This document shows, piece by piece, positions 3,711 through 38,273 of a stretch of 64,000 nucleotides of DNA. This stretch comes from Candidatus Poribacteria bacterium (GTDB taxonomy: Bacteria > Poribacteria > WGA-4E > WGA-3G): contig OZ242029.1 in the NCBI GenBank assembly GCA_965205015.1, forward strand, positions 3,264,001 to 3,328,000. The letters run 5' to 3'. The position numbers were made by a program, and so were the translations under genes. The notes beneath the pieces were generated by a model. That model worked only from the letters and a program-made list of their open reading frames with translations. It ran no database searches and had not been told where the DNA came from. Each line of letters begins with the position of its first letter. Positions within the stretch are counted from its first letter, which is position 1.

Positions 3711-6656
3711 CTATTTTTGTATCAACATCTTGCGTGTCGCGGTAAAATCGCCTGCGGTGAGCGTGTAGAAGTAGACACCACTCGCCACAGGTTCACCCAA
3801 CGCATTTCTGCCATCCCAATACGCCGCACGGCTCCGAGACGCATAGATATCCGCAGACTGATGCCCTAACGTCAGCATCCGAACCAAACGTCCATCTGCA
3901 GCATAGATAGAAATAGACACATCCGCAGGCTCTGATAACTGATACGGGATCCACGTCTCCGGGTTGAACGGGTTCGGATAGTTCGCTAAGAGCAGCGTCT
4001 CTTTCGGGGTGAGTATCGCAAGGAGCTGCTCCAGAAACAGGAACCCACGCTGATACCGCGCACCCGTGAGACCTTCTGCCCGCGCAAGCGATAACCACTG
4101 ACGCATCTCTGTCGCAGTGAACATCTCAGCAATGCTCTCCGGATGCAGGGACGGGGCAGCCGCTGCTGCTTCTATCGCCGTAGCAATTAACACGAGATCC
4201 GCGGCATCCACCACGCCATCCTTGTTCATATCCGCTGTGTTCTCACCCGTTTGACCCAGACGCTCCGAAGCGACAGTCATATCCTCAAGACTCACCACAC
4301 CATCACCGTTCACGTCTCCTATAAGTTGTGGAGAATCTCCTACCTCTCCAGTCTCAATCCGCACGGCTAAGAAGTCGGCATTGCTGTCGGTCAGTTTCAC
4401 ATCGGATAATATCGGCAGCGCAGGCGAGGCAGTCAGCACTTCAAACGTGAAGGCCGCAAGCATCCCATCCCCTTCACTGCTCTCTTGGAGAGAGGTCCCA
4501 CCAAACGTGACCCGATTGCCATTCACCACGGGCGGCACAACGAAAGCACCTGACGGTAGATACCCGCCATCCACACTTGACACAAAACGCAGGGCTGCAC
4601 GCTCGAAAGTGAGTTCTATCTGATACCCCCTCACATCTGCACCCTCTGTGATGTTAGTGTTCACCGTCAGTTGGTCACCTATGGTGCCAGACCCTACCGA
4701 CGTAGGGGAGAGACTCACCCGCGCAACATCGCTGTTGACAGACACCTCAGGCACTGCTGTTAGACTATCTATTTCAACCGAATAAGATTGTGAGATGTAG
4801 GGTGTGACATCCCACAGCAGCGTGCTGCCGTCACCACTTCCGCTTGCGAGTGTGGTGCCATCAGGCGAAAACGATACACTTCTGACAAAACTATGCCCTA
4901 TAAGCATCTGTATCTGCTCCCCTGTCTCTACGTCCCAGAGACGGATGGTGCCTTCCCAACCCGCTGTTGCGAGTGTGGTGCCATCAGGCGAAAACGATAC
5001 GCTAGAGACCCAACCCCAATGCCCTATAAGCGTCTGTATCTGCTCCCCCGTCTCTACGTCCCAGAGACGGATGGTTTTGTCCCTACTCCCTGTTGCGAGT
5101 GTGGTGCCATCAGGCGAAAACGACACGCTGTGGACACCATCCATATGTCCTGTGAGTGTTCGTATCTGCTCCCCTGTCTCTACGTCCCAGAGACGGATGG
5201 TCTTATCCTGACTCGCTGTTGCGAGTGTGGTGCCATCAGGCGAAAACGATACGCTATAGACACCCTCCGTATGCTTGGTGAGTGTTTGTATCTGCTTCCC
5301 CGTCTCTATGTCCCATAGATGCACGGGGCCGTCCACAATTCCGCTTGCGAGGGTGCCATCCGGAGCAAACGCCAAGCTACCTGCAAAATGCGTATGCCCT
5401 GTGAGTGTTTGTATCTGCTTTCCCGTCTTTACATCCCAGAGACGGATACCAAGGTATCCGCAATTAGTCGCGCTTGCGAGGGTGCCATTATCGGGAGAAA
5501 ACGACAGGCTACTGACAAGATTTATATGCCCTGTGAGTGTTTGTATCTGCCTCCCCGTTTTTACATCCCAGAGACGGATGGTTCCGTGCCCATTCCCGCT
5601 TGCGAGTGTGGTGCCATCCGGACTAAACGATACGCTATAGACAGAACTCGTATGCCGTGTGATCGTTCGTATCTGCTTCCCCGTCTCTACATCCCATAGA
5701 CAGATGCCGCCCAAATTCCCACTGGCGAGGGTGCTACTATCGGGAGAAAACGATACACTAACGACATAACCCGTATCTCCTTCAAGCGTCCGGATGTGGT
5801 TCCCTGTCTCTGCGTCCCAGAGACGGATGGTTCCATCCTGCCCCCCGCTTGCGAGCGTCCTACCATCAGGCGAAAACGATACGCTATGGACACCATCCGT
5901 ATGCCCTTCAAGCGTGCGGATGGGATTACCTGTCGCTACGTCCCATAAATGGATGGTTCCGTCCCCATTTCCGCTTGCGAGTGTGGTGCCATCCGGACTA
6001 AATGATACGCTATCGTTCCAATTCGCACCTCCTTGGAAGGTTTGGAACTGTTCGCCCGTCACTACGTCCCATAAACGGATAGTTTTATCACGACTCTCGC
6101 TTGCGAGTGTGGTGCCATCAGGCGAAAACGATACGCTATAGACCCAACCCGTATGCCCTTGGAGCATGCGGATGGGATCGCCTGTCGCTACGTTCCATAA
6201 ACGGATGGTTCCGTCCCCATTCCCGCTTGCGAGTGTAGTGCCGTCAGGCGAAAACGACACGCTACCGACAGTACTCGTATGCCCTTAGAACGTTCGTATC
6301 TGCTTCCCCGTTTCTACGTCCCATAAACGAATAGTTCTGTCATTACTCCCACTTGCGAGTGTGGTGCCATCAGGCGAAAACGATACACTCAAGACGACCC
6401 CATGCGTATGCCCCGTGAGTAGGTCAAGTGCCTCACCAGTCTCCGCATCGTAGACCCAAATACCGATAGAACTCGCAGCCACCAGACGCGTCGCATCCGG
6501 GGAATACGCTATCTCGTATATACGCCCTTTATCAAGGCGCGCTTTGGCACCCTCGGGTAAACCCCATTGCGTGTCGTCTTGCGCGAAGGTGTTTGCTGAA
6601 AAAACGGTGAACGCATACAATAGGGTCAAAACAATAAAAAAACGTCTGTTTTTCAT
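3711..6656 (-). pseudogene. Secreted WD40 (14 repeats) - cohesin - dockerin - C-terminal Ig-like sorting-type domain protein, interrupted by one in-frame TAA at 6287-6285
   Basis: ATG 6656 with RBS and signal peptide MKNRRFFIVLTLL; ORFs 6285-6731 and 3711-6260 are in the same frame (TF*GHTSTVGSVSFSPDG); GYQIELTF cohesin-like region, GDVNGDGVV/DMNKDGVVDAADL dockerin, LLANYPNPFNPETWIPYQL...SGVYFY tail. Confidence 0.85.
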
Positions 6657-13195: not shown

Positions 13196-13483
13196 TTAGT
13201 TTGTAAACTTTGCTAAATACTTCCAGACCCAGTGCCACCGGAGCTGCCAGATTAATTTCCGGCGATTGATGTGATGCTCGAAAAGTCTTTGCCCATCTAA
13301 CTCAAGCACAGGAATCAGATGTTTATATTTCGTGAAGAGTCCGAGATTCTTTGTGATGTTAATCTCCTCTACTGCAATAAACGGTGTCTTTGCTTCAATG
13401 CGCTGCAGCACCACTTTTGCCTCATCGCAGAGCGGGCAGTCCGGTTTCGTGTAGAACTGGAGTTGTATGGGTTTGCTTTTCAA
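13196..13483 (-). CDS. Glutaredoxin-like protein (DUF836-type), copy 1
   Basis: YTKPDCPLCDEAK, EINIT, YKHLIPVL; probable TTG start at 13483. Confidence 0.8.
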   Translation of the reverse strand: MKSKPIQLQFYTKPDCPLCDEAKVVLQRIEAKTPFIAVEEINITKNLGLFTKYKHLIPVLELDGQRLFEHHINRRKLIWQLRWHWVWKYLAKFTN

Positions 13484-13577
13484 CAGAATTGCTTTGAAGT
13501 AAAATCTGCTAATATAAAAAATACGTGTGATTGCTTCCAACGAAGGTAGTCCCTACACGGGTTTGGCATCTTTATTT

Positions 13578-16500
13578 TTACGCATCTTTTTTACGTCTGT
13601 AGACCAGTAGGTTTCGGTATTTACGAAACACCTCTACGGTCTCAGTTGCTTTCTTTTGGGTAGCGATGTCTAATGGTGTTTCGCCATTGTTGGTTTCCGC
13701 ATGAACATCTACACCACGATCTAATAATACCTCGGCTGTTTTATACGCATTGTGCCATGCTGCTTCATGTAGAGGCATATATCCATGGTGGTCTTTTGCC
13801 TCAATATCCGCCCCGTATTTTAACAAGACTTCGGCTGTTTTATACGCATTGTGCTGTGCTGCTTCATGTAGAGGCGTATATCCATATTTGTCTTTTGCCT
13901 CAATATCCGCGCCATGTTTGATGAGTCTCTCAGTTTGCTCATAACTGTCGTTCTTCGCTGCCAAGTGCAACAACGTCTCACTATCCGAGTTTCTGTATTT
14001 ACAAAACACCTCCAGGGTCTCAGTCGCTTTCTTTCGTATAGCATTGTGCAATGCTGCTATATGTAGTGGTGTCCATCCATTATTGCTTTTTGCATTGACA
14101 TCTGCCCCGTTATCAATCAGGACTTCGGCTGTTGTATAAGCATTATTCCGAGCTGCTTCATGTAGTGGGGTATTACCCCATTTGTTTTCTACCATAGTAT
14201 CCGCCCCATTATCAATTAGTATTTCGGCTGCTTTATGCGTATTGTGCAATGCTGCAGTATGTAGAGGGGTATTCCCTGATCGGTCTTCTGCCTCAATATT
14301 CGCCCCATTTTTCAGTAAAACTTCTGCCATTTCGTAAGCATCGTGACGGGCTACATGATGTAGCAGAGCCTCACCTTTCCCATCCTTTACGTCTACATCC
14401 GCGCCATGTTTGATGAGTCTCTCCGCTTGTTCATAACTGTCGTTCTTCACTGCTAAGTGCAACAACGTCTCCCCAGATGCGTTTCGGTATTTACAGAACA
14501 CCTCCACGGTCTCAGTCGCTTTCATTCGTATAGCGATGTCTAATGGCGTTTCGCCACTGCTGGTTTCCGCATGAACATCTACACCACACTCCAATAATAC
14601 CTCGGCTGTTTTATGCGCATTGTGCAATGCTGCTATATGTAGTGGTGTCCAGCGACTGTTGTTTTTTGCGTTGACATCTGCTCCATTATCAATCAGTATT
14701 TCGGCTGCTTTATGCGCATTGTGCCATGCTGCTCTATGTAGAGGGGTATTCCCCGATCGGTCTTCTGCGTCTATATCCACCCCATTATTAATCAGTATTT
14801 CGGCTATTTCATAATCACTTTGTGATGCAGCAGTATGTAGGGGGGGCCAGCGACTGTTGCTTTTTGCGTTGACATCTGTCCCATTATTAATCAGTATTTC
14901 GGCTGCTTTATGTGCATTGTGCAATGCTGCTATATGTAGTGGTGTCCAGCTGTCCCTATCTTTTGTGTTGACATCCGCTCCATTATTAATCAGTATTTCG
15001 GCTATTTCATAATCATTTTGTGATGCTGCTATATGTAGTGGTATCCAGTCCCTGTTACTTTTTGCGTTGACATTTGCTCCATTGTCAATCAGTATTTCGG
15101 CTGCTTTATGTGCATTGTGCAATGCTGCTTCATGTAGAGGGGTACATCCATATTGGTTTTCTGCCTCAATATCCGCCCCATTATCAATCAGTATTTCGGC
15201 TGCTTTATGCGTATTGTGCCATGCAGCAGTATGTAGAGGGGTATTCCCTGATCGGTCTTCTGCCTCAATATCCGCGCCATGTTTGATGAGTCTCTCAGTT
15301 TGCTCATAGTTGTCGTTCTTCACTGCTAAGTGCAACAACGTCTCACCAGATGCGTTTCTATATTTACAAAACACCTCCACAGTCTCAGTCGCTTTCATTC
15401 GTATAGCGATGTCTAATGGCGTTTTGCCCCTGCTGGTTTCCGCATGAACATCTACACCGCGCTCCAATAATACCTCGGCTGTTTTATGTGCATTGTGCAA
15501 TGCTGCTTCATGTAGTGGTGTCCAGTCCCTGTTGCTTTTTACGTTGACCTCTGCCCCGTTATCAATCAGTATTTCGGCTATTTCATAATCACTTCGTGAT
15601 GCAGCAGTATGTAGTGGTGTCCATCCATTGTTGTTTTTTGCGTTGACCTCTGCTCCATTATCAATCAGTATTTCGGTTGCTTTATACGCATTGTGCAATG
15701 CTGCAGTATGTAGAGGGGTATTCCTCGACTGGTCTTCTGCCTCAATATCCGCTCTATGTTTGATGAGTTTCTCTATTTGTTCATAACTGCCGTTCTTCAC
15801 TACTAAGTGCAGCAACGTCTCACTATCCGAGTTTCTATATTTACAAAACACATCAATGGTCTTAGTTGCTTTCTTTCCGGTAGCGATGTCTAATGGCGTT
15901 TCGCCCCTGCTGGTTTCCGCATGAATATCTGCACCACGCTCCAATAATACCTCGGCTGTTTTATGTGCATTGTGCAATGCTGCTTCATGTAGAGGGGTAC
16001 ATCCAAATTGGTTTTCTGCTTCTATATCCGCCCCATTATCAATCAGTATTTCGGTTGCTTTATACGCATTTTGCAATGCTGCAGTATGTAGAGGAGTATT
16101 CCCCGATCGGTCTTTTGCCTCAATATCCGCTCCGTGTTTGATGAGTCTCTCAGTTTGCTCATAACTGCCGTCCTTCACTGCCAAGTGCAGCAACGTCTCG
16201 CCAGATGCGTTTCGGTATTTACAAAACACATCAATGGTCTTAGTCGCATTTTCTTGTATAGCAATGTCTAATGGCGTTTTACCACTACTGATTTCTGCAT
16301 GAACATCTGCACCGCGCCCCAATAATACCTCGGCTGTTTTATACGCATTTTTCAGAGCTGCTATGTGTAGTGGTGTCCATCCACTGTTGGTTTCCGCATG
16401 AACATCTGCACCGCGCCCCAATAATACCTCGGCTGTTTTATGTGCATTGTGCAATGCTGCAAGATGTAGTGGTGTACATTCATATTGGTTTTCTGCCTCA

Positions 16501-19181
16501 ATATCCGCCCCATATTTCAACAAGACTTCGGCTGTTTTATGTGCATTGTGCAATGCTGCTTCATGTAGAGGGGTACATCCAAATTGGTTTTCTACCTCTA
16601 TATCCACCCCATTTTTTAGTAAAACTTCGGCCATTTCGTAAGCATCCTGACGGGCTGCATGATGTAGCAGAGCCTCACCTTCCCCATCCTTTGCGTCTAT
16701 ATCCGCTCCATGTTTGATGAGTCTCTCTATTTGCTCATAACTGTCGTTCTTCACTGCCAAGTGCAACAACGTCTCACCAGATGCGTTTCGGTATTTACAA
16801 AACACATCAATGGTCTCGGTCGCATTTTCTTGTATAGCGATGTCTAATGGCATCTTGCCACTGCTGATTTCCGCATGGACATCTGCACCGCGATCCAATA
16901 ATACCTCGGCTGTTTTATACGCATTTTTCAGAGCTGCTATATGTAGTGATGTCCAGCCATCCTTATCTTTTCTGTTGACCTCTGCTCCATTATCAATCAG
17001 GACTTTGGCTGTTTGATATGCATCCGAAAATGCTACTGCATATAGTGATGTCCAGCCGTCCTTATCTTTTGCGTTGACATCTGCCCCGTTATCAATCAGG
17101 ACTTCGGCGCATTCATGATTCTTCTGTGATGCTGCTATATGTAGTGATGTCCAGCCATCCTTATCTTTTCTGTTGACCTCTGCTCCATTATCAATCAGCA
17201 TTTCGGCTGTTTTATATCCATTGTTCCGGGTGGCTTCATGTAGAGGGGTACATCCATATTGGTTTTCTGCCTCAATATCCGCCCCATTTTTTAGTAAAAC
17301 TTCCGCTATCTCGTAGGCATCCTGAAACACTACCCAATGTAGCGGGGTGCAACTTTTATCATCCTTTGCGTCTATATCCGCCCCATGTTTGATGAGTCTC
17401 TTTATTTGCTCATAACTGTTGTTCTTCACTGCCAAGTGCAACAACGTCTCACCAGATGCGTTTCGGTATTTACAAAACACCTCCACGGTCTCAGTCGCTT
17501 TCTTTTCGGTAGCGATGTCTAATGGCGTTTCGCCCCTGCTGGTTTTCGCATGAACATCTACACCACGCTCCAATAATACCTCGGCTGTTTTATATCCATT
17601 GTTCCGGGTGGCTTCATGTAGAGGGGTACATCCATATTGGTTTTCTGCTTCTATATCTGCCCCATTGTCAATCAGTATTTCGGCTGCTTTATGCGTATTG
17701 TACCATGCAGCAGTATGTAGAGGGGTATTACCTGATCGGTCTTCTGCCTCAAAATCCGCCCTGTATTTCAACAATACCTCGGCTGTTTTATGTGCATTGT
17801 GCCATGCAGCAGTATGTAGGGGGGTATTACCTGATCGATCTTCTGTCTCTATATCCGCCCCATTTTTTAGTAAAACTTCGGCCATTTCGTAAGCATCCTG
17901 ACGGGCTGCATGATGTAGCAGAGCCTCACCTTCCCCATCCTTTGCGTCTATATCCGCGCCATGTTTGATGAGTTTCTCAGTTTGCTCATAACTGCCGTTC
18001 TTCACTGCTAAGTGCAACAACGTCTCACCAGATGCGTTTCGGTATTTACAAAACACATCAATGGTTTCAGTCGCATTTTCTTCTATAGCGATGTCTAATG
18101 GCGTTTCGCCACTGTGGGTTTCCGCATGAACATCTGCACCGCAATCCAATAATACTGTGGTTGTTTTATACGCATTATGAGATGCTGCTTCATGTAGTGG
18201 TGTCCATCCACTGTTGCTTTTTGCGTTGACGTCTGCTCCATGATTAATCAGGGCTTCGGCTATTTCATAATCATTTTGTGATGCTGCAAGATGTAAAGGG
18301 GTTCGTCCATATTCATCTCTGGCATCGACATCTGGCAGTAATCTACAGGAGGTTGGAACCCGGATCGTGCCACCGTTTGTAGTAATCACAAGCGTCGTTT
18401 CGTACGTTTCGTATGGTGTTAGCCGGTTTGCATCAAGTGTGATAGAGACGGGACCCCCACCGAGGACCTCACGCTCTGAAATTTCCAGTCCTGGCAATTC
18501 CTTTGAAAATTCAACCTCGCCATGGAGAAACCCGCGCCCGACATTTGTAATCTCAAGGTTCACGGTTTCCTGTGTATCAGTAGCAATGTTGTCAAAGTCT
18601 ATACGCGACAGACTGATCTGAGCCTCCGGCTTCCCGATATGAGGGTCCAGCGTTTGCACTAACATTTCCAACCCGACATCTTGTCTCGACCTGTATTGTT
18701 CTGTAATGTCTTTCGCAGTGTGTGCCAGTCGTGGTTGGTGAATACCTTCAAGCCATCTCGGAATCACACCGCTATAGAGTAACGTCTTGGCTTCCGTCCA
18801 ATTGCCATCAATCAAACGCGCCAAGTGCTGAGGTGTGTCGGGTTGATCGCCGTTTGTGAATGTGAACACAAAGGGTGCCGTTTCTCTTTTCGGCTCTGGT
18901 ATGTGCTCCTGTCGTTTTTGTAGATCAATTTCTGCTATGTGCGCCTGCCGTTTTTGCGGATCAATCAAAACGGCTTTTGCTTTATTCAGAATGTCCCGCC
19001 ACTGCTCTTCTGTTTTGCCATCAAGCCGAGGGCGCCCCCCCGCATTTAAAGACGCTCTATAAAGATTTTTATGCTTAGCGTCAACCTGTGCCGCAATAGT
19101 AGACTCAGAAAGGCTCTGAATATCCTCAACGGAGATCTCCAACACCTCAAAATAGTTAATGAATTCATCGCGTTTGGACAT
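13578..19181 (-). CDS. Large ankyrin-repeat protein with degenerate J-domain-like N-terminus, helical domain and Ig-like domain
   Basis: NYFEVLEI...ILNKAKAVLIDPQKRQAH (J-like, no HPD); IDFDNI...LEITNVGRGFLHG (Ig-like); about 40 G.TPLH.AA repeats in 9 capped blocks; start ATG 19181 or 19211. Confidence 0.9.
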   Translation of the reverse strand: MSKRDEFINYFEVLEISVEDIQSLSESTIAAQVDAKHKNLYRASLNAGGRPRLDGKTEEQWRDILNKAKAVLIDPQKRQAHIAEIDLQKRQEHIPEPKRETAPFVFTFTNGDQPDTPQHLARLIDGNWTEAKTLLYSGVIPRWLEGIHQPRLAHTAKDITEQYRSRQDVGLEMLVQTLDPHIGKPEAQISLSRIDFDNIATDTQETVNLEITNVGRGFLHGEVEFSKELPGLEISEREVLGGGPVSITLDANRLTPYETYETTLVITTNGGTIRVPTSCRLLPDVDARDEYGRTPLHLAASQNDYEIAEALINHGADVNAKSNSGWTPLHEAASHNAYKTTTVLLDCGADVHAETHSGETPLDIAIEENATETIDVFCKYRNASGETLLHLAVKNGSYEQTEKLIKHGADIDAKDGEGEALLHHAARQDAYEMAEVLLKNGADIETEDRSGNTPLHTAAWHNAHKTAEVLLKYRADFEAEDRSGNTPLHTAAWYNTHKAAEILIDNGADIEAENQYGCTPLHEATRNNGYKTAEVLLERGVDVHAKTSRGETPLDIATEKKATETVEVFCKYRNASGETLLHLAVKNNSYEQIKRLIKHGADIDAKDDKSCTPLHWVVFQDAYEIAEVLLKNGADIEAENQYGCTPLHEATRNNGYKTAEMLIDNGAEVNRKDKDGWTSLHIAASQKNHECAEVLIDNGADVNAKDKDGWTSLYAVAFSDAYQTAKVLIDNGAEVNRKDKDGWTSLHIAALKNAYKTAEVLLDRGADVHAEISSGKMPLDIAIQENATETIDVFCKYRNASGETLLHLAVKNDSYEQIERLIKHGADIDAKDGEGEALLHHAARQDAYEMAEVLLKNGVDIEVENQFGCTPLHEAALHNAHKTAEVLLKYGADIEAENQYECTPLHLAALHNAHKTAEVLLGRGADVHAETNSGWTPLHIAALKNAYKTAEVLLGRGADVHAEISSGKTPLDIAIQENATKTIDVFCKYRNASGETLLHLAVKDGSYEQTERLIKHGADIEAKDRSGNTPLHTAALQNAYKATEILIDNGADIEAENQFGCTPLHEAALHNAHKTAEVLLERGADIHAETSRGETPLDIATGKKATKTIDVFCKYRNSDSETLLHLVVKNGSYEQIEKLIKHRADIEAEDQSRNTPLHTAALHNAYKATEILIDNGAEVNAKNNNGWTPLHTAASRSDYEIAEILIDNGAEVNVKSNRDWTPLHEAALHNAHKTAEVLLERGVDVHAETSRGKTPLDIAIRMKATETVEVFCKYRNASGETLLHLAVKNDNYEQTERLIKHGADIEAEDRSGNTPLHTAAWHNTHKAAEILIDNGADIEAENQYGCTPLHEAALHNAHKAAEILIDNGANVNAKSNRDWIPLHIAASQNDYEIAEILINNGADVNTKDRDSWTPLHIAALHNAHKAAEILINNGTDVNAKSNSRWPPLHTAASQSDYEIAEILINNGVDIDAEDRSGNTPLHRAAWHNAHKAAEILIDNGADVNAKNNSRWTPLHIAALHNAHKTAEVLLECGVDVHAETSSGETPLDIAIRMKATETVEVFCKYRNASGETLLHLAVKNDSYEQAERLIKHGADVDVKDGKGEALLHHVARHDAYEMAEVLLKNGANIEAEDRSGNTPLHTAALHNTHKAAEILIDNGADTMVENKWGNTPLHEAARNNAYTTAEVLIDNGADVNAKSNNGWTPLHIAALHNAIRKKATETLEVFCKYRNSDSETLLHLAAKNDSYEQTERLIKHGADIEAKDKYGYTPLHEAAQHNAYKTAEVLLKYGADIEAKDHHGYMPLHEAAWHNAYKTAEVLLDRGVDVHAETNNGETPLDIATQKKATETVEVFRKYRNLLVYRRKKDA

Positions 19182-19250
19182 ACTGTAGCTCTTTCGTATA
19201 TTCAAAGGCATCGCGGCTAAAATTATGGATTGCTACAAAGGGATACCAGT

Positions 19251-20846
19251 TTATTCGACTGTCAAACCTTGCATATCTGTTTGTGCCTGTGTGACAGCTT
19301 CTTCATCAAGTGTGGGTCGTTTAATGATGGAGAAAACATCATAAACTGCGGTTGCCCCCTTGTGGCTCAGAGATTTTGCCGTTACTTCAAGCACTTGGTC
19401 AAAGTTATATTTGTAAGTAACATGAACAGGAGATCCTGCTGGTAGTCCTGGGGGTAGTTCGAGGGTACATTCACCCAATTTATATTCGTCGAAAAGATCT
19501 ATATCGTCTTTTCGTTGATCCTGTTCAAGGCTCTGGACAACCTCAATCAAGACTAAGCGTTGGTTGTTGTCCACTGTTCCAAACTGATCTGCTATCTCAC
19601 AGGGGACTGGAGTCATTTTCTTAATCATGACGTGGATAATAGACTCGCGTGCTGCGTTGAGAACAACAAGCCCAAGATTATGTGTAGCACCATCGGTCAC
19701 AGTCACTTTAGGAGCACCGTCCGCTCCGATGAACTGTTCAATCACAGCGGCAGACATATCGGCTGTTGCTGCGTCCTCTTCGGATATCTGGCGGAGTGTT
19801 CCCTGAATTGCTGCCCCCAAGGCAACCGCTTCGTCAGGGTTGATTTCATTCGGGTTGATCTCTTTACCGCTGATGGTTGCGAGCATTTCTTGCACCATGG
19901 GCATCCGAGTGGATCCCCCTACTAATAGTACGGTGTCAATATCTGTCCATGTCATGTTGCCTTCATCGAGGACTATGTCGCAGAGGACTCGACATCTCTC
20001 AAGGAGTGCAGCAGTGAGTTCCTGAAACTTTTCACGCGTCAATTCTACACGTGTCGTCTTACCATTATATCCGCAAACGATGCGTGCTTTTTCTCGCCGT
20101 GACAAAGATTCTTTCGCACCGATTGCATTAAGTTGAAGGTCTTGATACGTGTGAAGGTCCTGTAACGGGTTCTCACCGTGTTCAATCTCAAACATTTTGG
20201 CAACATAGATAATAATGGCATTGTCCCAATCTTTACCCCCGAGTCTGTGATCTCCGTTCGTTGCGAGCATCTGGATTGTGGATTGGGAAACTTTCATAAG
20301 GGTTACATCGAGTGTTCCACCGCCAAGGTCAAACACAAATACGTTCTGGTCGGTGTCGAGTTGATCTATTCCATAAGCGAGCGCGGCGGCCGTCGGTTCG
20401 TTCAGTACCTGTAGGACGTTCAACCCGGCAATTTTACCGGCGTTGCGCGTGGCTTCGCGTTCTGCATCGCGAAAATAGGCGGGAACCGTAATAACAGCAT
20501 CCGTGATTTCGGTGTTGAGATATGCTTCGGCATCTTGTTTGAGTTTTGTCAAAATCAGTGCGGATAGTTCTTCGGGTGAATAGTTCTTATCATCAAAGTT
20601 TCGGAAAAACGTTTCTTTTGATTTCCCCATCTCGCGTTTGACGAATTCAACAATTTGTTCTGGAACTGATCTGGCGTTCTGTTTGGCGATTTTTCCGACG
20701 GTAACAAGATCGTCTTCAAACATAACCACCGACGGGGTAATCCGATCGCTTTCGGCGTTCGGTATAATTTCTGGCTGCCCATATTCGTCAATGTGCGCAA
20801 TGGCTGAAAATGTTGTACCTAAATCAATACCAACAACTTTACCCAT
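19251..20846 (-). CDS. Atypical Hsp70 (DnaK-like) protein, 531 aa
   Basis: GIDLGTTFS, TVPAYF, NEPTAAALAYG, FDLGGGTLDV, LGGKDWD, LVGGSTRMP, NPDEAVALGAA; short C-terminus. Confidence 0.95.
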   Translation of the reverse strand: MGKVVGIDLGTTFSAIAHIDEYGQPEIIPNAESDRITPSVVMFEDDLVTVGKIAKQNARSVPEQIVEFVKREMGKSKETFFRNFDDKNYSPEELSALILTKLKQDAEAYLNTEITDAVITVPAYFRDAEREATRNAGKIAGLNVLQVLNEPTAAALAYGIDQLDTDQNVFVFDLGGGTLDVTLMKVSQSTIQMLATNGDHRLGGKDWDNAIIIYVAKMFEIEHGENPLQDLHTYQDLQLNAIGAKESLSRREKARIVCGYNGKTTRVELTREKFQELTAALLERCRVLCDIVLDEGNMTWTDIDTVLLVGGSTRMPMVQEMLATISGKEINPNEINPDEAVALGAAIQGTLRQISEEDAATADMSAAVIEQFIGADGAPKVTVTDGATHNLGLVVLNAARESIIHVMIKKMTPVPCEIADQFGTVDNNQRLVLIEVVQSLEQDQRKDDIDLFDEYKLGECTLELPPGLPAGSPVHVTYKYNFDQVLEVTAKSLSHKGATAVYDVFSIIKRPTLDEEAVTQAQTDMQGLTVE

Positions 20847-21732
20847 CTATATCTGTCTCCTTTTCGGGTTTTGAATTTTCGACCATATCCTTTTTAGGTG
20901 TTGTTTCTTGGAGGACTGCCGTTTCTTGAGATTCATTCTCAGGCTGCGTATACCGTGAGATTTTCACCTCTGCTGGACGAATTACCTTCTCGTGCCAATA
21001 GAAACCGACTTTATGAATGTGAACCACCTTTTGATCTTCATCAGGGTTCGCTGTTGGCACGGTCTCAACGGTCTTATGAAGTTCTCTATTAAGATTCTCG
21101 GAATGATCTTCTGCTTCATAGGGACGGACATCCATGCGATACAGCACCTCTTCCAGTTCAAAACGGAGATTCTCCAAATTGCTACGAAAGTGTGTCAATT
21201 TTTCTTGGGTATATGGATGAGACGGCACTTCTGCCTGTCCTTCATCACAGATTTCGGTTAATTGCGATTCAACCTCCACAAAACTATCATACAACTGAAT
21301 GAGATTATGGACAATTGGTTTATGAATTGCCTCAAGAAGGGCATTTTCCTTGTAATCCTTCATTTCACGATAGACTGTGGCGAACATCTTTTGTTGATTC
21401 TGGTTACGCCCGATCTGATGTTGAAACAGATTCTCTAACCGCGTCAAGGATTGGTGCATCCCCGTTAGAACGTTTTGAAGAGGTTCAATACCTTTATTCT
21501 CAGACGGGGCTGCTTCTTTCGTTGAAGTGGTATCAGGAGCTACCTCGGTTTGAGAACCGTTTCCGTTTTTGGTTGGATGTGGGGTCTTCTCAGGCGTTCG
21601 CGGTGTTGATCCAACATCCTTCTCTGATCCGCTTTCTACGTTACCCGCTGCCTCTTTCGAAGAAAAATCGGTATCCATATCAGAATTTGAAGCCGCGCTT
21701 GTCTCATCAGTCTTTAACGCTTCTTTGCACAA
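20839..21732 (-). CDS. GrpE-like nucleotide exchange factor with long disordered N-terminus
   Basis: Coiled coil, then LIQLYD...HKTVETVPT...KVGFYWHEKVIRPAEVKI; stop overlaps the Hsp70 start (ATGGGTAA). Confidence 0.85.
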   Translation of the reverse strand: MCKEALKTDETSAASNSDMDTDFSSKEAAGNVESGSEKDVGSTPRTPEKTPHPTKNGNGSQTEVAPDTTSTKEAAPSENKGIEPLQNVLTGMHQSLTRLENLFQHQIGRNQNQQKMFATVYREMKDYKENALLEAIHKPIVHNLIQLYDSFVEVESQLTEICDEGQAEVPSHPYTQEKLTHFRSNLENLRFELEEVLYRMDVRPYEAEDHSENLNRELHKTVETVPTANPDEDQKVVHIHKVGFYWHEKVIRPAEVKISRYTQPENESQETAVLQETTPKKDMVENSKPEKETDIDG

Positions 21733-21876
21733 AATTACTATCTCCTTCCAGTGTCAAAACGTAACTGCCTTGTGGGGCGATGCGCTCTTTTTTTTTCACT
21801 ATAAAGCAACATGTACTCGTTGCCAGCAATACCCGACATATAGCAAAATTTAGAATTAATTGGACACTCTGCCCCA

Positions 21877-21900
21877 GCGAGGTTGGGAAACCTCGCCTAC
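21877..21900. repeat. REP-like palindrome (related copy at 59765-59781)
   Basis: GCGAGGTT-GGGA-AACCTCGC-CTAC versus CGAGGTT-AGA-AACCTCG. Confidence 0.6.
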
Positions 21901-21949
21901 CGAGTACGGGTGGAATGTCTGTTTATTTTTCGGATTTACCATATAAGAC

Positions 21950-22195
21950 TCAACAACACTGCGACACTAACTTCCAATAGTTGGCGTGGTGCACAAAAAG
22001 TTGTTGTCTGTCCAACTCAAACACGGGAATCAGATACTTATATTTCGTGAAGAGTCCGAGATTCTTTGTGATGTCAATTTCTTCTACTGCAATAAACAAT
22101 GTCTTTGCTTCAATGCGCTGCAGCACCACTTTTGCCTCGTCGCAGAGCGGGCAATCCGGTTTCGTGTAGAGCTGGAGTTGGATTGGAATTTCCAT
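21950..22195 (-). CDS. Glutaredoxin-like protein (DUF836-type), copy 2, with shorter C-terminus
   Basis: MEIPIQLQLYTKPDCPLCDEAKVVLQRIEAK; DNA near-identical to 13296-13470. Confidence 0.75.
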   Translation of the reverse strand: MEIPIQLQLYTKPDCPLCDEAKVVLQRIEAKTLFIAVEEIDITKNLGLFTKYKYLIPVFELDRQQLFVHHANYWKLVSQCC

Positions 22196-22759: not shown

Positions 22760-25339
22760 ATGATACGCGGAACTGTTGAGACCAAGTTAAGACCTATCAA
22801 GTTAGCATTCCTTGTAAACCCTGAAGATAGAGTTTCTCTGCAGCAAGCTATAGAAATTAACACTTTTCTGTGGGGTGGAGTGTATAATCCAATAATTCCG
22901 ACTTATAAAGAACTTCCTGCCGGATGGCAAGATGACCCTTTTCTTAGAAGTCCAAGCCCTCAAGAATTGGTTTCTGGCTACTTGGACAATTTTGATCCTG
23001 ACTATGTTGTTCCGATGGGTGAGTGTGTTGATTATACCCCTGATGTTGATGATTTCAATAAAATCACGGATGTATCAGAGATACTTGAATCAGTCGATAC
23101 AGACGATGCGCCTATCTACGGAATAGGTCTTTTTGAAGTTTTGAGTTACTTTTTTGAGAAAGAACTCAAATTTCAAAGGAAATATCCATTAGATATATGC
23201 GTGCCTCAATTTAACGGTAACTTTGATCTCTTTTTTGCGAGTGTTTTTGGGAAACTGTCTGAAAGTATTAACACGATTTTTTGGGAACGCGTTGCTAATC
23301 ATTTAGAAGTAAAAAGAATAGATTGTTCCGCCTCAAACTACGTAGAGTTGCTTGAATTCCCACTCTTTTTGAGGCGTATGACCCGTTTATACCTTACGCA
23401 TAGTGGTAATTATGAGGAGTGTGTTTACCTCCTGGATGTCACTAAACCGATTGATGTTATAGATTATTGGAATCTTCGAGCTGTTGGTTGGAAAGTGTTT
23501 GCTGTCCCAAAACAATTTTCACAAGATGACATAGTTCAGAAAACTGTTCAACGTATTATTGAAGAGAAGTACGCTTACTACGACGATCCGATAAAAGATC
23601 AGTTTTATCGCCCGATAACACTTTTGAAAAGCCGATCTGTCTCTGAAGATGAACAGAGGCAATTTGTAGATTCATTGGGTAGTTCACTTTCTGATATACC
23701 CAATAAAGATAAAGGTCCAAAGTACTTGTTTAAGACGATGTATCCGAGAATATGGGACGAATGGGCACGAAGTCGTGACCATGTTGAATGTTGCGAGATT
23801 AAATCTGACACAGTGGAGCATGATATATCAACGAACGAAGCAACGATTCGTGTAAAAACCTTGGAACCGAAATTTTCTCGCCATCTTTTTACCGGATTAG
23901 GGGAACCGCGTTTTGTAAACGAATTTAATCTGCGATTATACAGTGATAAACAACTCTTAGCGGATATAATCCCTAAAGGCGATTTGCACCTTGCTAGTGT
24001 GATCAGTAGATATGATCGACTCAACTGGCGTATATCCAGAAAAGGGTTAGTCCACCTGTCCAAACATTCAGAAAGAGGCTTGGAACTATTTATCCCTGAA
24101 GCAGAATCGATTTTCACAAGATGGTTGGAATTGCAAGGATGGACAGTCAAACTAAGATCTCCGGGTAAAATTGCCAAGCAGATGCTACAACAGCTTGATG
24201 GTATTGATGGTACTTGGATCTTGGCAAAAAAGGGCATTATTGAACTTTTAGGAGAAATGAGTAGCTATGCCAATATCCTAAAGAGGGTCCCCGAGGAACT
24301 GACAAAATTACAAACGTCTTTACAACAGAACGGAGTTCAGGGTTCGGCAGATGAGATTGAAGGATTTGTAAAACATCTCAAAGAGATTGAACCGCAACTC
24401 GCAGATGACAAAAGACCTATGCTCGCAACGATTTTTTGGAGAAGGCTTAATGAGATTGTGGGGAAACCATTGGAGAAAGAAGAAGGATGGTCAAACGAAG
24501 TTCATAGGCGACGGGTTGATATTGAAGCAAAAGAGATCCGTAAGAAACTGATTGATTCAAATGCTCTCCAACTGGGACTGGAAGTTCAGTGCACGGTATG
24601 TAATAAACGCTCGTGGTATTCTCTGAAAAATTCGGATTACGAGTTACGATGTCCAGAATGCCATGCACAATTTGCCTTTCCACAAAATATTGAAGATATT
24701 CAGTGGGCATATCGTACACTCGGTGCCTTTAGTTCGTCTAACCAAGCTGACGGTGCCTACACGATGCTTTTGACGTTTCGTTTTTTCACTGTATTACTTG
24801 ATGGTGCAACAACTCCACTTATGAGTTTTGAAATTCAAAAAGCGGGGAAAGATCCTTTAGAAGTTGATTTGGGTCTATTTTTCCAAAGATCTAAATTCTC
24901 TAAATCCGAAACTAAAATCATTTTTGCGGAATGTAAAACATTTAATCCATTTGAACAGAAAGATATTGATAGAATGAGAGATTTAGGAAACGCTTTTCCC
25001 GGCGCGATCCTCGTCTTTGCCAAACTCACAGAATCCTTTAATGATGAGGAGAAAGCACTTCTTAGTCCTTTGGTAGAAGCATCTTGGGAACGCTATGGTA
25101 AAAATCAGCCATATAATCCTATATTGATCCTTACTGGAAAAGAACTTTATCTGGATTTGCTCTGGGAATCACATTTGGCTAAAGTTCGATACTGGGATTT
25201 ATTAGATATTTGTTCTTTGACGCAGGAATTGTATTTGGGCAGAGACTTGAGGCGTGAGCAAGATAACAACATTGAGCAGCGTGTAACACGTGCAACATGG
25301 TCGCCTATTGTTCGTCCACAGAACAATCAAAATCAATAG
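22760..25339 (+). CDS. Uncharacterised 859-aa protein with Zn-ribbon and C-terminal PD-(D/E)XK-like nuclease motif
   Basis: CTVC...CPEC; EVDLG...IIFAECKT; AT-richer than flanking metabolic genes. Confidence 0.7.
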   Translation: MIRGTVETKLRPIKLAFLVNPEDRVSLQQAIEINTFLWGGVYNPIIPTYKELPAGWQDDPFLRSPSPQELVSGYLDNFDPDYVVPMGECVDYTPDVDDFNKITDVSEILESVDTDDAPIYGIGLFEVLSYFFEKELKFQRKYPLDICVPQFNGNFDLFFASVFGKLSESINTIFWERVANHLEVKRIDCSASNYVELLEFPLFLRRMTRLYLTHSGNYEECVYLLDVTKPIDVIDYWNLRAVGWKVFAVPKQFSQDDIVQKTVQRIIEEKYAYYDDPIKDQFYRPITLLKSRSVSEDEQRQFVDSLGSSLSDIPNKDKGPKYLFKTMYPRIWDEWARSRDHVECCEIKSDTVEHDISTNEATIRVKTLEPKFSRHLFTGLGEPRFVNEFNLRLYSDKQLLADIIPKGDLHLASVISRYDRLNWRISRKGLVHLSKHSERGLELFIPEAESIFTRWLELQGWTVKLRSPGKIAKQMLQQLDGIDGTWILAKKGIIELLGEMSSYANILKRVPEELTKLQTSLQQNGVQGSADEIEGFVKHLKEIEPQLADDKRPMLATIFWRRLNEIVGKPLEKEEGWSNEVHRRRVDIEAKEIRKKLIDSNALQLGLEVQCTVCNKRSWYSLKNSDYELRCPECHAQFAFPQNIEDIQWAYRTLGAFSSSNQADGAYTMLLTFRFFTVLLDGATTPLMSFEIQKAGKDPLEVDLGLFFQRSKFSKSETKIIFAECKTFNPFEQKDIDRMRDLGNAFPGAILVFAKLTESFNDEEKALLSPLVEASWERYGKNQPYNPILILTGKELYLDLLWESHLAKVRYWDLLDICSLTQELYLGRDLRREQDNNIEQRVTRATWSPIVRPQNNQNQ

Positions 25340-25397
25340 ATGCTGTCCTTAATTTCTCATTTGTAAAAGGCGCGATGAATTGCGCTACTAAAAGTAG

Positions 25398-25910
25398 GTG
25401 ATGACGATGAAAAATGGTATTAAAGTTTTATTCGGAATTATCGGAGTTGTCCTCATATTTTTCTCAGGAGGTTGGGCACAAGAACGGTTCAATTTAGGTG
25501 TTGACCTTTTCAATCAGAACCATCTTGAAGAAGGATTAAAACGCTATGTACCTACGCGTATGCAATGGCTCGCACTTGAATTAGAAAGACGTAATTTGTT
25601 CACACTTGGTCAGATGGAGAGTATTGGATTTTATGTGTCTTATACAGATTATTACGGTCAGCTCCATGCCAATCTAACATATGGGTATAAGTTAGAATAT
25701 AAAAAAGTCAAAGATGCAATAGAGTTAGTGAAGACAGATATATCAATGATTGCGAAGGAATACGGGTGGGACTCATGGGTCCGTGTTCAGCTTACAGTTG
25801 ATAGGTCTCTCTTTGAGAAGGTTGGGGACTTCTGGCATAAACGCGAGCGAATTGCACCAGAGATTTATGAATGGAAGGGGACAGAACAACCTAAACTCTT
25901 AAAGTTCTAA
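25398..25910 (+). CDS. Hypothetical secreted protein
   Basis: Signal peptide MKNGIKVLFGIIGVVLIFFSGGWA; no recognisable domain. Confidence 0.65.
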   Translation: MMTMKNGIKVLFGIIGVVLIFFSGGWAQERFNLGVDLFNQNHLEEGLKRYVPTRMQWLALELERRNLFTLGQMESIGFYVSYTDYYGQLHANLTYGYKLEYKKVKDAIELVKTDISMIAKEYGWDSWVRVQLTVDRSLFEKVGDFWHKRERIAPEIYEWKGTEQPKLLKF

Positions 25911-26044
25911 TTATCGGAATCCATTATGTAGTGTGCTGGTTTCTTGGCTTTATAAATATCTGAAAAATAAAATCGCATTTAGGGATTTTGAGGCATGCAG
26001 GTCAGCAGAGGTACGAACACTCAGGTAGTATGCAGACGAACCGT

Positions 26045-26082
26045 TGTAGAACTGATACTCTTGTGTAGAACTGATACTCTTG
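26045..26082. repeat. Perfect 19-bp tandem duplication upstream of hicA
   Basis: TGTAGAACTGATACTCTTG x2. Confidence 0.85.
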
Positions 26083-26168
26083 TTGGTTGTGTTCCTTATC
26101 GCCTTGGCCCTCTTTGAGATGAACATTTATTTTTTTCTCTTCCAGAGAGGCAGGCGAGGCACTGCAAA

Positions 26169-26441
26169 ATGGAATTAAGTAAGAATCATATTAGGACTTT
26201 ACAAACTATTTTTAGAACACCAGTAGCTCGCACTTTACAATGGAGGCGCATTGAAGCTCTTATTGTAGCTCTTGGCGGTATAAAAACGGAAGGGGATGGT
26301 TCTCGCGTGAAATTTGAATTAGAAGATGAAACTATACATCTTCATCGACCTCACCAAAAAGAGGCGAAACCTTATCAAATACGAGAATTAAGGGAGTTCT
26401 TACTGAAAGCAGGTGTAACAAATGAAACCTATGATATATAA
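26169..26441 (+). CDS. hicA: HicA family toxin
   Basis: LQWRRIEALIVALGG..EGDGSRVKF...LHRPH.KEAKPYQIRELREFL. Confidence 0.9.
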   Translation: MELSKNHIRTLQTIFRTPVARTLQWRRIEALIVALGGIKTEGDGSRVKFELEDETIHLHRPHQKEAKPYQIRELREFLLKAGVTNETYDI

Positions 26442-26694
26442 AGGCTATAAAGCAGAAATTTCATATAGCGATGAGGATGAATGCTTTGTTGGGCATGTCG
26501 TTAATATTGATTCAATGGTAAGTTTTCATGGCAATACAGATGATGAATTAAGAACAGCTTTTCAAGAAATGATAGACTTCTATATTCAAACATCCGGCAA
26601 ACCAGAAAATTTCGTAACAATACCATTTGATATTTATGCAGAAAGAGGTAATAATTTTGACCCCAGAGCAGGAGGCAGAACACGGTATTTCTGA
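26422..26694 (+). CDS. hicB: HicB family antitoxin (short, atypical C-terminus)
   Basis: M.YKGYKAEISYSDEDECFVGHV.NI...VSFHG....ELRTAFQEMIDFY; overlaps hicA. Confidence 0.85.
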   Translation: MKPMIYKGYKAEISYSDEDECFVGHVVNIDSMVSFHGNTDDELRTAFQEMIDFYIQTSGKPENFVTIPFDIYAERGNNFDPRAGGRTRYF

Positions 26695-36869: not shown

Positions 36870-38273
36870 ATGTTTATCAATCGACACCAAGAATTAAATG
36901 CTTTAGAACGCATGTTTCAGTCAGGAATAGCAGAATTTTTCGTGTTATATGGCAGGAGACGGGTAGGAAAAACTGAACTCCTCTCACGGTTTTGTAAGGA
37001 CAAAAGAAGTATCTATTTCCTTGCCAGTCAGTTGAAGGAGCAAGATCACCTCCAGCAGCTGACTGAGACTGCGCGACATATCATCAACGATCCATTACTG
37101 CAGAGCCTTGCCTTTAATGATTGGGAATCTGCCCTTATCTACTTCGCGCAGCAGGCAGAAGAAGAAAGGCTTGTTCTGGTACTTGACGAATTTCAATATC
37201 TCTGTGAGGATAACGCGGCACTCCCGTCACTGATCCAACGCTTTTGGGATCTACACGGAAAAAATAGCAAACTTTTTTTGATCTTATGTGGATCACAGGT
37301 GAGTTTTATGGAGCGAGAGGTATTGGCGGAACGATCACCACTATATGGACGACGTACTGGACAACTCCGTTTGATGCCGCTCTCCTACCGTGACAGTGGA
37401 TATTTTTTTTCTGAATATTCTGCGAAAGAAAAACTCATCGCTTACGGCATCCTCGGCGGGATTCCAGCGTATCTCAATCAATTTGCGTTGCGTGCCTCAA
37501 ACGATTCACAAGGAATGCTTGAACAGCATATCAAAAACGAATTGCTCACACCGCAAGGGTACTTGTTTGATGAAGTTAATTTCTTGTTACGCACGGAACT
37601 CAGAGAACCGAGAACGTATGCGAGTTTGCTGCACGCAATCGCTGGTGGCGTGACGCGGCTGAATGAGATTTCCCAACGGGTTGGGCTTGACGCAACAAGC
37701 GTGAATAAATATTTGAGCGTGCTTCGGGAACTCGGGTTAGTTAAACGCGAAACACCGGTCACTGACCGCGCACCCCAAAAAAGCAGAAAAGGGCTTTATA
37801 AAATCGCGGACAACTATGTCAAATTCTGGTTTCGGTTTGTGCTGCCCAATCGGAGTCTCATCGAATCCGGTAACACAGAGTTGGTGTATGAGCAGATGAT
37901 CGCTCCGAACCTTTCACACTATATGGGCGAAATTTTTGAAGACGTTTGTCGTCAATATATCAGTCTTTATTGGGAAGAAAAATTAAGGGTCGCTCCCAAA
38001 CAGGTCGGGGCGCATTGGGGGGGCAATGTTGAAATTGATGTCCTAACAGAAAATGTTGACGAAAGTCACTGGTTTGGCGAGTGCAAGTGGTGGAGTGCTC
38101 CAGTCGGAGAAAACATTTTAAATCATCTCATCGAAAAGGCTGCGCAAGTTCCTAATCAATGGAATCGGAATCCGCGGTATCTGCTGTTTTCTGCGAATGG
38201 CTTTACGGACGCGCTCAAACAGAGAGCAAAAAAGGAGGATATCTTTCTCATTGAGACCAACGACCTGTTTTGA
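36870..38273 (+). CDS. Archaeal-type P-loop ATPase with wHTH and C-terminal DUF234/PD-(D/E)XK domain
   Basis: FINRHQEL, YGRRRVGKT, LDEFQY, LCGS, SPLYGRRT, GGIPAYL, EIDV...GECKW. Confidence 0.9.
   Translation: MFINRHQELNALERMFQSGIAEFFVLYGRRRVGKTELLSRFCKDKRSIYFLASQLKEQDHLQQLTETARHIINDPLLQSLAFNDWESALIYFAQQAEEERLVLVLDEFQYLCEDNAALPSLIQRFWDLHGKNSKLFLILCGSQVSFMEREVLAERSPLYGRRTGQLRLMPLSYRDSGYFFSEYSAKEKLIAYGILGGIPAYLNQFALRASNDSQGMLEQHIKNELLTPQGYLFDEVNFLLRTELREPRTYASLLHAIAGGVTRLNEISQRVGLDATSVNKYLSVLRELGLVKRETPVTDRAPQKSRKGLYKIADNYVKFWFRFVLPNRSLIESGNTELVYEQMIAPNLSHYMGEIFEDVCRQYISLYWEEKLRVAPKQVGAHWGGNVEIDVLTENVDESHWFGECKWWSAPVGENILNHLIEKAAQVPNQWNRNPRYLLFSANGFTDALKQRAKKEDIFLIETNDLF

Follow-up and report, generated by a model that had tools for sequence, protein, structure and literature searches.

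A lidless Hsp70 with a GrpE-like protein and a J-like ankyrin adaptor in Poribacteria: a probable dedicated chaperone system

Described Hsp70 systems and the three-gene cassette

In bacteria, the Hsp70 types DnaK, HscA and HscC are distinguished (PMC8215388), and in complex bacteria, paralogues derived from DnaK occur in which domains are truncated or missing; these are described as largely unexplored 'dark matter' in a 2026 review (PMC13580251). The 64,000 nucleotides (nt) analyzed here (contig OZ242029.1 of assembly GCA_965205015.1, positions 3,264,001 to 3,328,000; hereafter the window) stem from a poribacterial sponge symbiont or a close relative and contain a cassette of three genes for a GrpE-like protein, a lidless Hsp70 and a 1,877-aa adaptor protein, which starts with a J-like domain and ends in a very large ankyrin array. 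The cassette is intact and conserved and represents a dedicated Hsp70 system in variant form; its ankyrin adaptor is exceptional. With a probability of about 0.7, it represents a private Hsp70 machine of three genes that is targeted by its adaptor. No description of this operon was found in the literature searches.

The three open reading frames (ORFs) are located on the minus strand and are tightly packed, as had been stated in the original prediction, which was made from the letters of the window alone. The GrpE-like and Hsp70 ORFs overlap by 8 nt, as expected there, whereas the distance between the Hsp70 stop and the adaptor start is 39 nt instead of the proposed 40-70 bp. The start codon of the GrpE-like gene is TTG, with the Shine-Dalgarno-like sequence GGAAGGAGA 8 nt upstream. 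Residue numbers of the J-like domain refer to the 1,877-aa protein and those of the Hsp70 catalytic residues to E. coli DnaK. The cassette comprises the following features, given with their positions in the window:

20839-21732, minus strand: GrpE-like gene, 297 aa (ORF and PF01025)
19251-20846, minus strand: lidless, catalytically intact Hsp70 paralogue, 531 aa (ORF and PF00012)
13578-19211, minus strand: adaptor protein with J-like domain, helical domain, Ig-like domain and ankyrin array, 1,877 aa (ORF, translation, Pfam and AlphaFold2 (AF2) model)
18906-19166, minus strand: J-like domain, residues 16-102 (139-sequence alignment A1, AF2, Foldseek and VIA-align)
18642-18869, minus strand: helical domain, about residues 115-190, FTFTNGD...WTEAKTLLYSG...GLEMLVQTLDP (AF2 helices 127-188)
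18333-18629, minus strand: PapD/ASH/HYDIN-like Ig domain, about residues 195-293 (AF2 strands 197-292 and Foldseek)
13602-18329, minus strand: ankyrin array, about 49 repeats in 9 blocks (Pfam Ank families, DNA repeats and motif count)

The closest known system is E. coli HscC with DjlB and DjlC, in which a short specialised Hsp70 is likewise encoded beside its own J proteins (E. coli locus L050). In an alignment with E. coli HscC and DnaK, the window Hsp70 departs from DnaK in that 19 residues of lobe I and 6 residues of the GrpE-signature loop are deleted and 4 residues are inserted in L1,2 of the beta-sandwich; all three are features of HscC, and the designation of the deleted loop as GrpE signature follows the review by Mayer (PMC8215388). 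The partner J domains depart from the HPD motif in both systems, the motif of DjlB and DjlC being HPE (PMC10410713), and HscC is reported to be stimulated solely by its own J protein (PMC8215388). The two systems differ, however, in several respects: the Hsp70s share 35% identity and no common clade was resolved in the tree; the window protein has 531 aa and almost no lid, HscC 550-580 aa and a shortened lid; a GrpE-like gene belongs to the cassette, whereas HscC presumably works without GrpE (PMC8215388); the J-like domain lacks both H and P and fails the Pfam cut-off; and the adaptor arrays carry binders of the formylglycine-generating enzyme (FGE)-like, WD40 and ankyrin types and not membrane anchors.

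The HscA-HscB system resembles the cassette in that a dedicated Hsp70 is combined with a J protein bringing the client, a single one in that case, and HscB (1fpo) is among the structural matches of the J-like domain (Z 7.6). In contrast, the window Hsp70 reaches only 326.8 with the NCBIfam HscA model TIGR01991 (cut-off 708.55), an isc context is lacking here, and HscA has a lid and no GrpE. With DnaK-DnaJ-GrpE, the cassette shares the three families and the logic of an ATPase, a J-type targeting factor and an exchange factor. It differs as a separate clade (35-37% identity) without lid, HPD motif, zinc finger and G/F region, and housekeeping copies are found elsewhere in the genomes of relatives.

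Among the GAP1-N2 GTPase conflict systems, a theme of HSP70, GrpE and DnaJ-FNIII has been described (Kaur et al., 2020, PMC7159879). As in the cassette, an Hsp70 and a GrpE are linked to a J protein fused to repeat or binder modules, and its authors class the theme with NTP-dependent conflict systems in which FGS domains and repeat arrays serve as binders. Those systems are GTPase-centred, occur in actinobacteria and firmicutes and contain a J domain described as DnaJ, whereas a GTPase domain was detected neither in the 50 scanned ORFs of the window nor in the examined gene clusters of the related loci. For the 'DnaK derivates' of the 2026 review, no operon with J-like adaptor arrays is described in the available part of that article (PMC13580251). 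With its lidless Hsp70, an exchange factor of its own and a J-fold connector without HPD, the cassette is a concrete, testable form of this DnaK-derivative 'dark matter'.

Hsp70, GrpE-like protein and J-like domain of the cassette

The Hsp70 matches PF00012 with an expectation value (E) of 4.2e-120 and 402.2 bits (cut-off 20.6), covering positions 1-491 of the 599 in the profile. All five catalytic residues of E. coli DnaK (K70, E171, D194, T199 and D201) are identical in the aligned protein. The C-terminus lies about 25 aa past the beta-sandwich, and the helical lid (alpha part of the substrate-binding domain, SBD-alpha) is missing. The linker reads VTVTD, compared with VLLLD in DnaK, and about 22 residues are inserted ahead of it.

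The Hsp70 shares 35-37% identity with the DnaK proteins of Poribacteria and E. coli, 33% with HscA and 35% with HscC, and its scores are below every NCBIfam DnaK cut-off (NF001413, 409.7 vs. 648; TIGR02350, 397.8 vs. 822.55). In a maximum-likelihood tree with 21 rows, 14 atypical Hsp70s form one clade (100/99) on a long separate branch and four DnaKs another. The tree, a check proposed with the original prediction, therefore sets the protein apart from DnaK, but its deeper order is not resolved, HscC being represented by a single row with a long-branch warning for its grouping with the atypical clade. For the comparison with relatives, 37 related loci were collected from public genomes, 35 of them with Poribacteria titles. 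The short Hsp70 was found in 35 of the 37 loci by tblastn with 71-92% identity, and the atypical clade is kept at 71-94% identity over many assemblies. In all three complete related genomes, a separate full-length DnaK (890.9-892.3 bits, frames of 653-659 aa) is encoded in addition to the short Hsp70.

A window-wide tblastn search with the Hsp70 query returned only the cassette copy, and no DnaJ, HrcA or second Hsp70 domain was detected by Pfam in the 50 window ORFs, in agreement with the earlier statement that neither hrcA nor a canonical dnaJ is adjacent. The memberships in the Hsp70 and GrpE families would also fit an ordinary or decaying heat-shock gene duplicate without a special role, or the housekeeping DnaK operon of the genome. 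Given the intact ORFs with their conserved catalytic residues, the maintenance of the atypical clade on its own long branch, the canonical DnaK and GrpE elsewhere in the three complete relatives and the lack of DnaJ and HrcA domains in the window ORFs, this explanation is very improbable. The claim that the Hsp70 is not the housekeeping DnaK is thus supported.

The GrpE-like protein matches PF01025 (E 9.7e-16, 58.3 bits, cut-off 25.8) with residues 84-259, following a low-complexity N-terminus of about 85 aa, and it remains under every NCBIfam GrpE equivalog cut-off (best 23.6 vs. 176). Counterparts with 40-56% identity are located before the Hsp70 gene in only 19 of the 35 Hsp70-bearing loci. 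In 10 loci (L003:5019-5918 and nine others), its place is taken by a 299-aa ankyrin protein with 41-47% identity to a part of the ankyrin array in the window. This replacement occurs in the Hsp70 lineage that is nearest to the window (87-92% identity). In the complete related genomes, whole-genome searches revealed the cassette GrpE-like gene in one of three and a housekeeping GrpE in all three. The proposed triad of GrpE, Hsp70 and J-like protein is therefore present here, but not obligatory in the relatives.

The N-terminal part of the adaptor (residues 1-295) was modelled by AF2 with a predicted local distance difference test score (pLDDT) of 92.2 and consists of J-like, helical and beta-sandwich parts, which corroborates the helical domain and Ig-like spacer proposed earlier. 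The J-like part occupies the very N-terminus and, modelled alone with 139 homologues, reached a pLDDT of 91.4. Nearly all matches listed by Foldseek for this model were J-domain chains (TM-score 0.46-0.66), with E of at least 0.056, and in a VIA-align search the ranks 1-22 of 48,161 chains were J domains (Z 9.1 to 5.6), the best being DNAJB8 (2dmx; Z 9.1, root mean square deviation 3.0, 79 residues aligned). By sequence, the similarity is faint: the window copy scores 13.1 bits with PF00226 (cut-off 27.8), this family matches weakly in 53 of the 139 members (best E 0.0045), and a profile search of the PDB yielded J proteins as eight of 11 hits, all with E of at least 0.22. The predicted J-domain-like start thus holds for the fold, whereas the Pfam cut-off is failed and the HPD motif is absent. 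Instead, helices II and III are connected by a longer loop with the sequence GGRPRLDG, in which G58, R62 and D64 are invariant in the 139 sequences of alignment A1. In parallel, the Hsp70 carries the substitutions R167Q, E206K, E217Q and D477K relative to DnaK, at positions that are presumably contacts of the canonical J domain of DnaJ. This parallel change of the surface that usually faces the J domain suggests insulation from the housekeeping system.

The Ig domain matches the PapD-like domain 2e6j of HYDIN (Foldseek E 3.8e-06, TM-score 0.75 normalised to the target). Together with the helical domain it forms a module that is not exclusive to the J-like family: of 37 representative proteins tested, 25 have a Ser/Thr kinase domain ahead of it. 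In others, it occurs together with HEAT repeats (three), BACON arrays (two), an FGE-like domain (two), WD40 (one), TPR (one) or ankyrin (one), and two are without a Pfam family.

A contact between the J-like domain and the Hsp70, as it had been expected, was obtained by complex prediction. The input consisted of the Hsp70 with a 37-row alignment, ATP and the J-like domain with 139 rows. The interaction score ipSAE was 0.75, 0.75 and 0.56 (best control 0.04), the runs agreed in at least 100% of the contacts, and the pLDDT of the partner was at least 85. When the method was calibrated, 116 of 157 solved complexes attained this ipSAE mark, compared with 2 of 215 mismatched pairs. On the J-like side, the predicted interface is formed by the most conserved loop (residues 52, 55-63 and 65, i.e., A1 positions 40, 43-51 and 53), and on the Hsp70 side by residues 63-83 and 205-234 in lobes IB and IIB. 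The hydrophobic residues V66, F68, F80, F81, I212, I213, L228, L231 and Y234 located there are conserved in the family and mostly polar in DnaK. The model supports binding of the J-like domain to the Hsp70 at a site other than the canonical one. In the solved DnaK-J complex (PDB 5NRO), the J domain is located at lobe IIA, the linker and SBD-beta. Due to the non-canonical site, the predicted contact is probably not a memory of that solved structure, and a canonical J action is not supported either.

According to the preferred reading of a private machine, the Hsp70 would work with its conserved ATPase residues and beta-sandwich peptide-binding domain and without a helical lid, and the GrpE-like protein would be its own nucleotide-exchange factor. 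The 1,877-aa protein would serve as targeting subunit: its J-fold domain with the invariant loop G-G-R-P-R-x-D-G would dock the adaptor to the private Hsp70 and not to the housekeeping DnaK, and the solenoid of 49 ankyrin repeats, extended by the helical and Ig spacer, would bind one or more protein ligands. A ligand brought to the Hsp70 in this way could then be held, remodelled or released by the ATP cycle.

Several points weigh against this reading. The complex prediction is a model and not a measurement, and a run with supplied alignments and a riding ATP falls outside of its calibration. The predicted docking site in lobes IB and IIB of the nucleotide-binding domain (NBD) differs from the canonical site at lobe IIA, linker and SBD-beta, and it overlaps with the usual binding region of exchange factors. 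Due to the missing HPD motif, the canonical stimulation of the ATPase may be lost. Six residues of the GrpE-signature loop are missing from the Hsp70 although a GrpE-like gene is present, and this gene is missing in 16 of the 35 cassettes. The window adaptor lacks an N-terminal leader of about 46 aa (MSKRDEFI...GLVVGE) that is kept in most relatives. A separate DnaK in the source genome is presumed from the relatives, and a ligand of the ankyrin array is not indicated by any of the results.

Adaptor families in relatives and the possible roles of the cassette

The original prediction had proposed to survey whether the synteny is found elsewhere and whether the third gene keeps its N-terminus and swaps its C-terminal domain, and both could be observed. 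In 35 of the 37 loci, the Hsp70 gene is followed by one to eight genes with a J-like start on the same strand (153 J-like starts in total). The gene order in relatives is UxuA-like, two ConA-like lectin genes, TPR, sulfatase, then GrpE-like, ankyrin or nothing, Hsp70, the J-like array and GH95. Of 120 genomes sampled from the phylum, 45 contained matches to a J-like profile, and the number per genome ranged from 1 to 13. Among 149 J-like ORFs of at least 250 aa, 135 are FGE-sulfatase-like, 11 have WD40 repeats and three are without a Pfam domain. The FGE-like assignments were made by a local profile (133) and as partial matches by Pfam (two); 16 low scorers were sent to Pfam, and all Pfam cross-checks agreed. 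No ankyrin adaptor was found among the J-like genes of the 37 loci. The combination of J-like domain and ankyrin occurs in six metagenome representatives (P0006, P0008, P0015, P0024, P0078 and P0092), so that FGE-like, WD40 and ankyrin domains are found behind the J-like head. The representative P0004 has 85% identity over the N-terminal 278 residues of the window adaptor, yet an FGE-like C-terminus; the domain exchange behind the J-like head is therefore recent.

In and beside one of the J-like arrays, DDE transposase genes are located (L026:233-1510 and L026:9010-10341), by which the arrays are recognised as sites of mobile-element activity. A further metagenome representative of 368 aa (P0084) combines the J-like domain with an ATPase-like part and matches the PADLOC model mad3 (E 5.3e-26) and AriA. 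It is the only link to a defence model among the 39 representative proteins scanned with PADLOC, none of which matched Zorya.

The possibility that the adaptors are active FGEs was rejected, since the pair of catalytic Cys (GGSxxCxxxxC of solved FGEs) was found in none of the 142 J-like proteins with an FGE-like domain. In 105 of them, GGSW is followed by variable residues, and the other 37 did not match the GGS pattern used. The column entropy of the FGE-like domain is highest around the former active site. Without the Cys pair, the FGE-like domains cannot be enzymes and are regarded as binders.

Sulfatases could be the clients of such binders, because an FGE-fold domain is found here beside a Cys-type sulfatase. 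In 31 of the 37 loci, a co-directional sulfatase gene (cluster c1, e.g., L003:3723-5006) is located upstream of the Hsp70 gene, which it abuts in four loci. All 26 full-length copies contain the C-x-P-x-R motif (25 CSPSR and one CAPSR). Because the sulfatase fold begins at their very N-terminus, a signal peptide is lacking, and they are of the cytosolic Cys-type. The cassette would then serve the biogenesis of sulfatases for glycan degradation: Cys-less FGE-like adaptors would bind C-x-P-x-R, the ancestral ligand of the domain, in unfolded sulfatases and pass these to the Hsp70, and the ankyrin adaptor in the window would be a derived offshoot for another endogenous client. The 135 FGE-like among 149 adaptors and the GH95, UxuA and ConA-like lectin genes among the neighbours are in line with this. 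A lead in the same direction comes from the ESM Atlas, where the clusters nearest to the short Hsp70 are commonest in Verrucomicrobiota and Planctomycetota, two sulfatase-rich phyla. If true, this explanation would account for the maturation of large enzyme sets in sulfatase-rich bacteria. It is doubtful, however, since the catalytic Cys pair is missing in all 142 domains and variability within the domain is highest in the loop replacing it, which fits a diversified and not a shared specificity. Adaptors of the WD40, ankyrin and HEAT types are not in line with this explanation, and the adjacency may be synteny inherited among close relatives. Neither in the window, where the nearest sulfatase is located at 38248-39681, nor in L002 is a sulfatase gene adjacent.

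The very large C-terminal ankyrin array that had been predicted was clearly recovered. Pfam ankyrin families match with E down to 6.7e-290, among them PF00023 (E 2.5e-287) with 36 stretches. In total, 49 TPLH-type motifs were counted, of which 40 of the 48 spacings are exactly 33 aa, and the repeats form nine blocks, each closed by a degenerate unit with an F[CR]KYRN motif. On the DNA level, 99-nt units and higher-order repeats of 198, 297, 378 and 477 nt with 70-92% identity are present. This similarity of the repeat units points to a growth of the array through tandem duplication.

A protein with 49 repeats may itself need help in folding, and the J-like proteins could accordingly be cargo, i.e., eukaryote-like effectors whose J-like tag recruits the Hsp70 to fold them or to keep them soluble or export-competent for delivery into the sponge. 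A constant N-terminal module with variable repeat or lectin C-termini, encoded in tandem arrays by a chaperone gene, resembles effectors with trafficking domains, and ankyrin proteins of sponge symbionts have been postulated to mediate host interaction (PMC3909097). On the other hand, no secretion-system gene or signal was seen in the cassette, the 50 window ORFs or the related-locus clusters examined, and a cytosolic Hsp70 is unable to pull cargo outward. The predicted contact, moreover, would be a docking of a domain to the NBD and not of a client in the peptide groove. This explanation is considered quite unlikely.

For the private machine itself, different roles come into question. Recognition of foreign or host proteins in conflict or symbiosis, as originally suggested, is a tentative assignment that falls short of being probable; if true, it would represent a new class of ATP-driven recognition machinery. 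The handling of endogenous clients, such as sulfatases, is possible with somewhat more doubt, another role is unlikely, and a role in which the adaptors themselves are the cargo is still less to be expected. A search against PADLOC-DB 2.0 gave no match for the J-like N-terminus or the GrpE-like protein and a weak one for the Hsp70 (PDC-M61B, E 1.2e-05). Within a genome, the same connector is found on as many as 13 binder proteins, and it is of interest what an Hsp70 does when it is aimed by lectin-like, WD40 or ankyrin modules. A more far-reaching, rather unlikely possibility is a chaperone-powered recognition repertoire, in which the Hsp70 would be the ATP engine for changeable FGE-fold, WD40, ankyrin and HEAT binders attached via an orthogonal J-like connector, the ankyrin array, expanding rapidly, would capture phage or sponge-host proteins, and the Hsp70 would unfold or sequester them. 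Such a repertoire would be an Hsp70-based equivalent of the conflict systems of the MoxR-vWA and STAND types in multicellular and symbiotic bacteria.

Expression and genomic setting

In two sponge metatranscriptome libraries, contigs over the grpE-like gene, the Hsp70 gene and the J-like part of a relative with 90-99% identity were found, and one RNA-library contig of 2,196 nt spans the grpE-like and Hsp70 genes. The summed depth reached 10-16 in the RNA library, compared with 3-6 when DNA from this sample was sequenced. These contigs are a weak hint of expression; that they do not prove transcription is a further point against the private machine. Promoter and terminator scans of the window revealed no excess over shuffled sequences (19 vs. 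18.1 expected and 11 vs. 9.1 expected, respectively), and no tRNA gene is located in the window.

Just upstream of the GrpE-like gene, at 21785-21917, the best DNA run shows a depth spike of 4,267 compared with about 245 and many loose ends at 21839. This identifies 21785-21917 as a multi-copy element in that sample; for its 27-nt core, no second copy was found in the window.

The cassette is directly flanked by two similar genes:

13196-13540, minus strand: glutaredoxin-like (DUF836) gene directly downstream of the cassette (PF05768, E 1.9e-16)
21950-22195, minus strand: second glutaredoxin-like (DUF836) gene directly upstream of the cassette (PF05768, E 9.8e-16)

These genes bracket the 8.4-kb cassette and contain a 228-nt direct repeat (13244-13471 and 21959-22186, family D9) with 85% identity and a spacing of 8,715 nt, which may be a trace of the arrival of the cassette or of a gene duplication that was split by insertion. 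The flanking genes (the two glutaredoxin-like genes, GGT, NUDIX, Bmp and ORFs of 859 aa and 170 aa) have no counterparts in the 37 loci except for one Bmp match with 27% identity; the genomic position of the cassette is thus not conserved. The cassette is part of a stretch with a G + C content of 0.40-0.47, compared with about 0.48-0.55 in most flanking stretches, and this low-G + C stretch also holds two orphan ORFs and a HicA gene.

The two orphan ORFs (859 aa and 170 aa) are located within the stretch 22760-26694 (G + C content 0.40) and are without a Pfam or PADLOC match; their nearest Atlas clusters are unnamed proteins of 774-813 aa, which are commonest in Pseudomonadota. Beyond them, a HicA toxin-domain gene (26169-26441) and a small overlapping ORF are found. 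The region 22760-26694 looks like an acquired island beside the cassette.

Other genes of the window encode PSCyt/PSD1, DUF1501, sulfatase, WD40 and leucine-rich repeat (LRR) proteins. Among these are an 849-aa WD40 protein without a J-like head (3711-6260) and a 635-aa protein with LRR, GHL15 and dockerin domains (54062-55969). Furthermore, a 481-aa AAA_15/AAA_21 ATPase of the OLD/AbiEii-like family is encoded at 52075-53520; the 187-aa ORF that follows with an overlap has no Pfam match.

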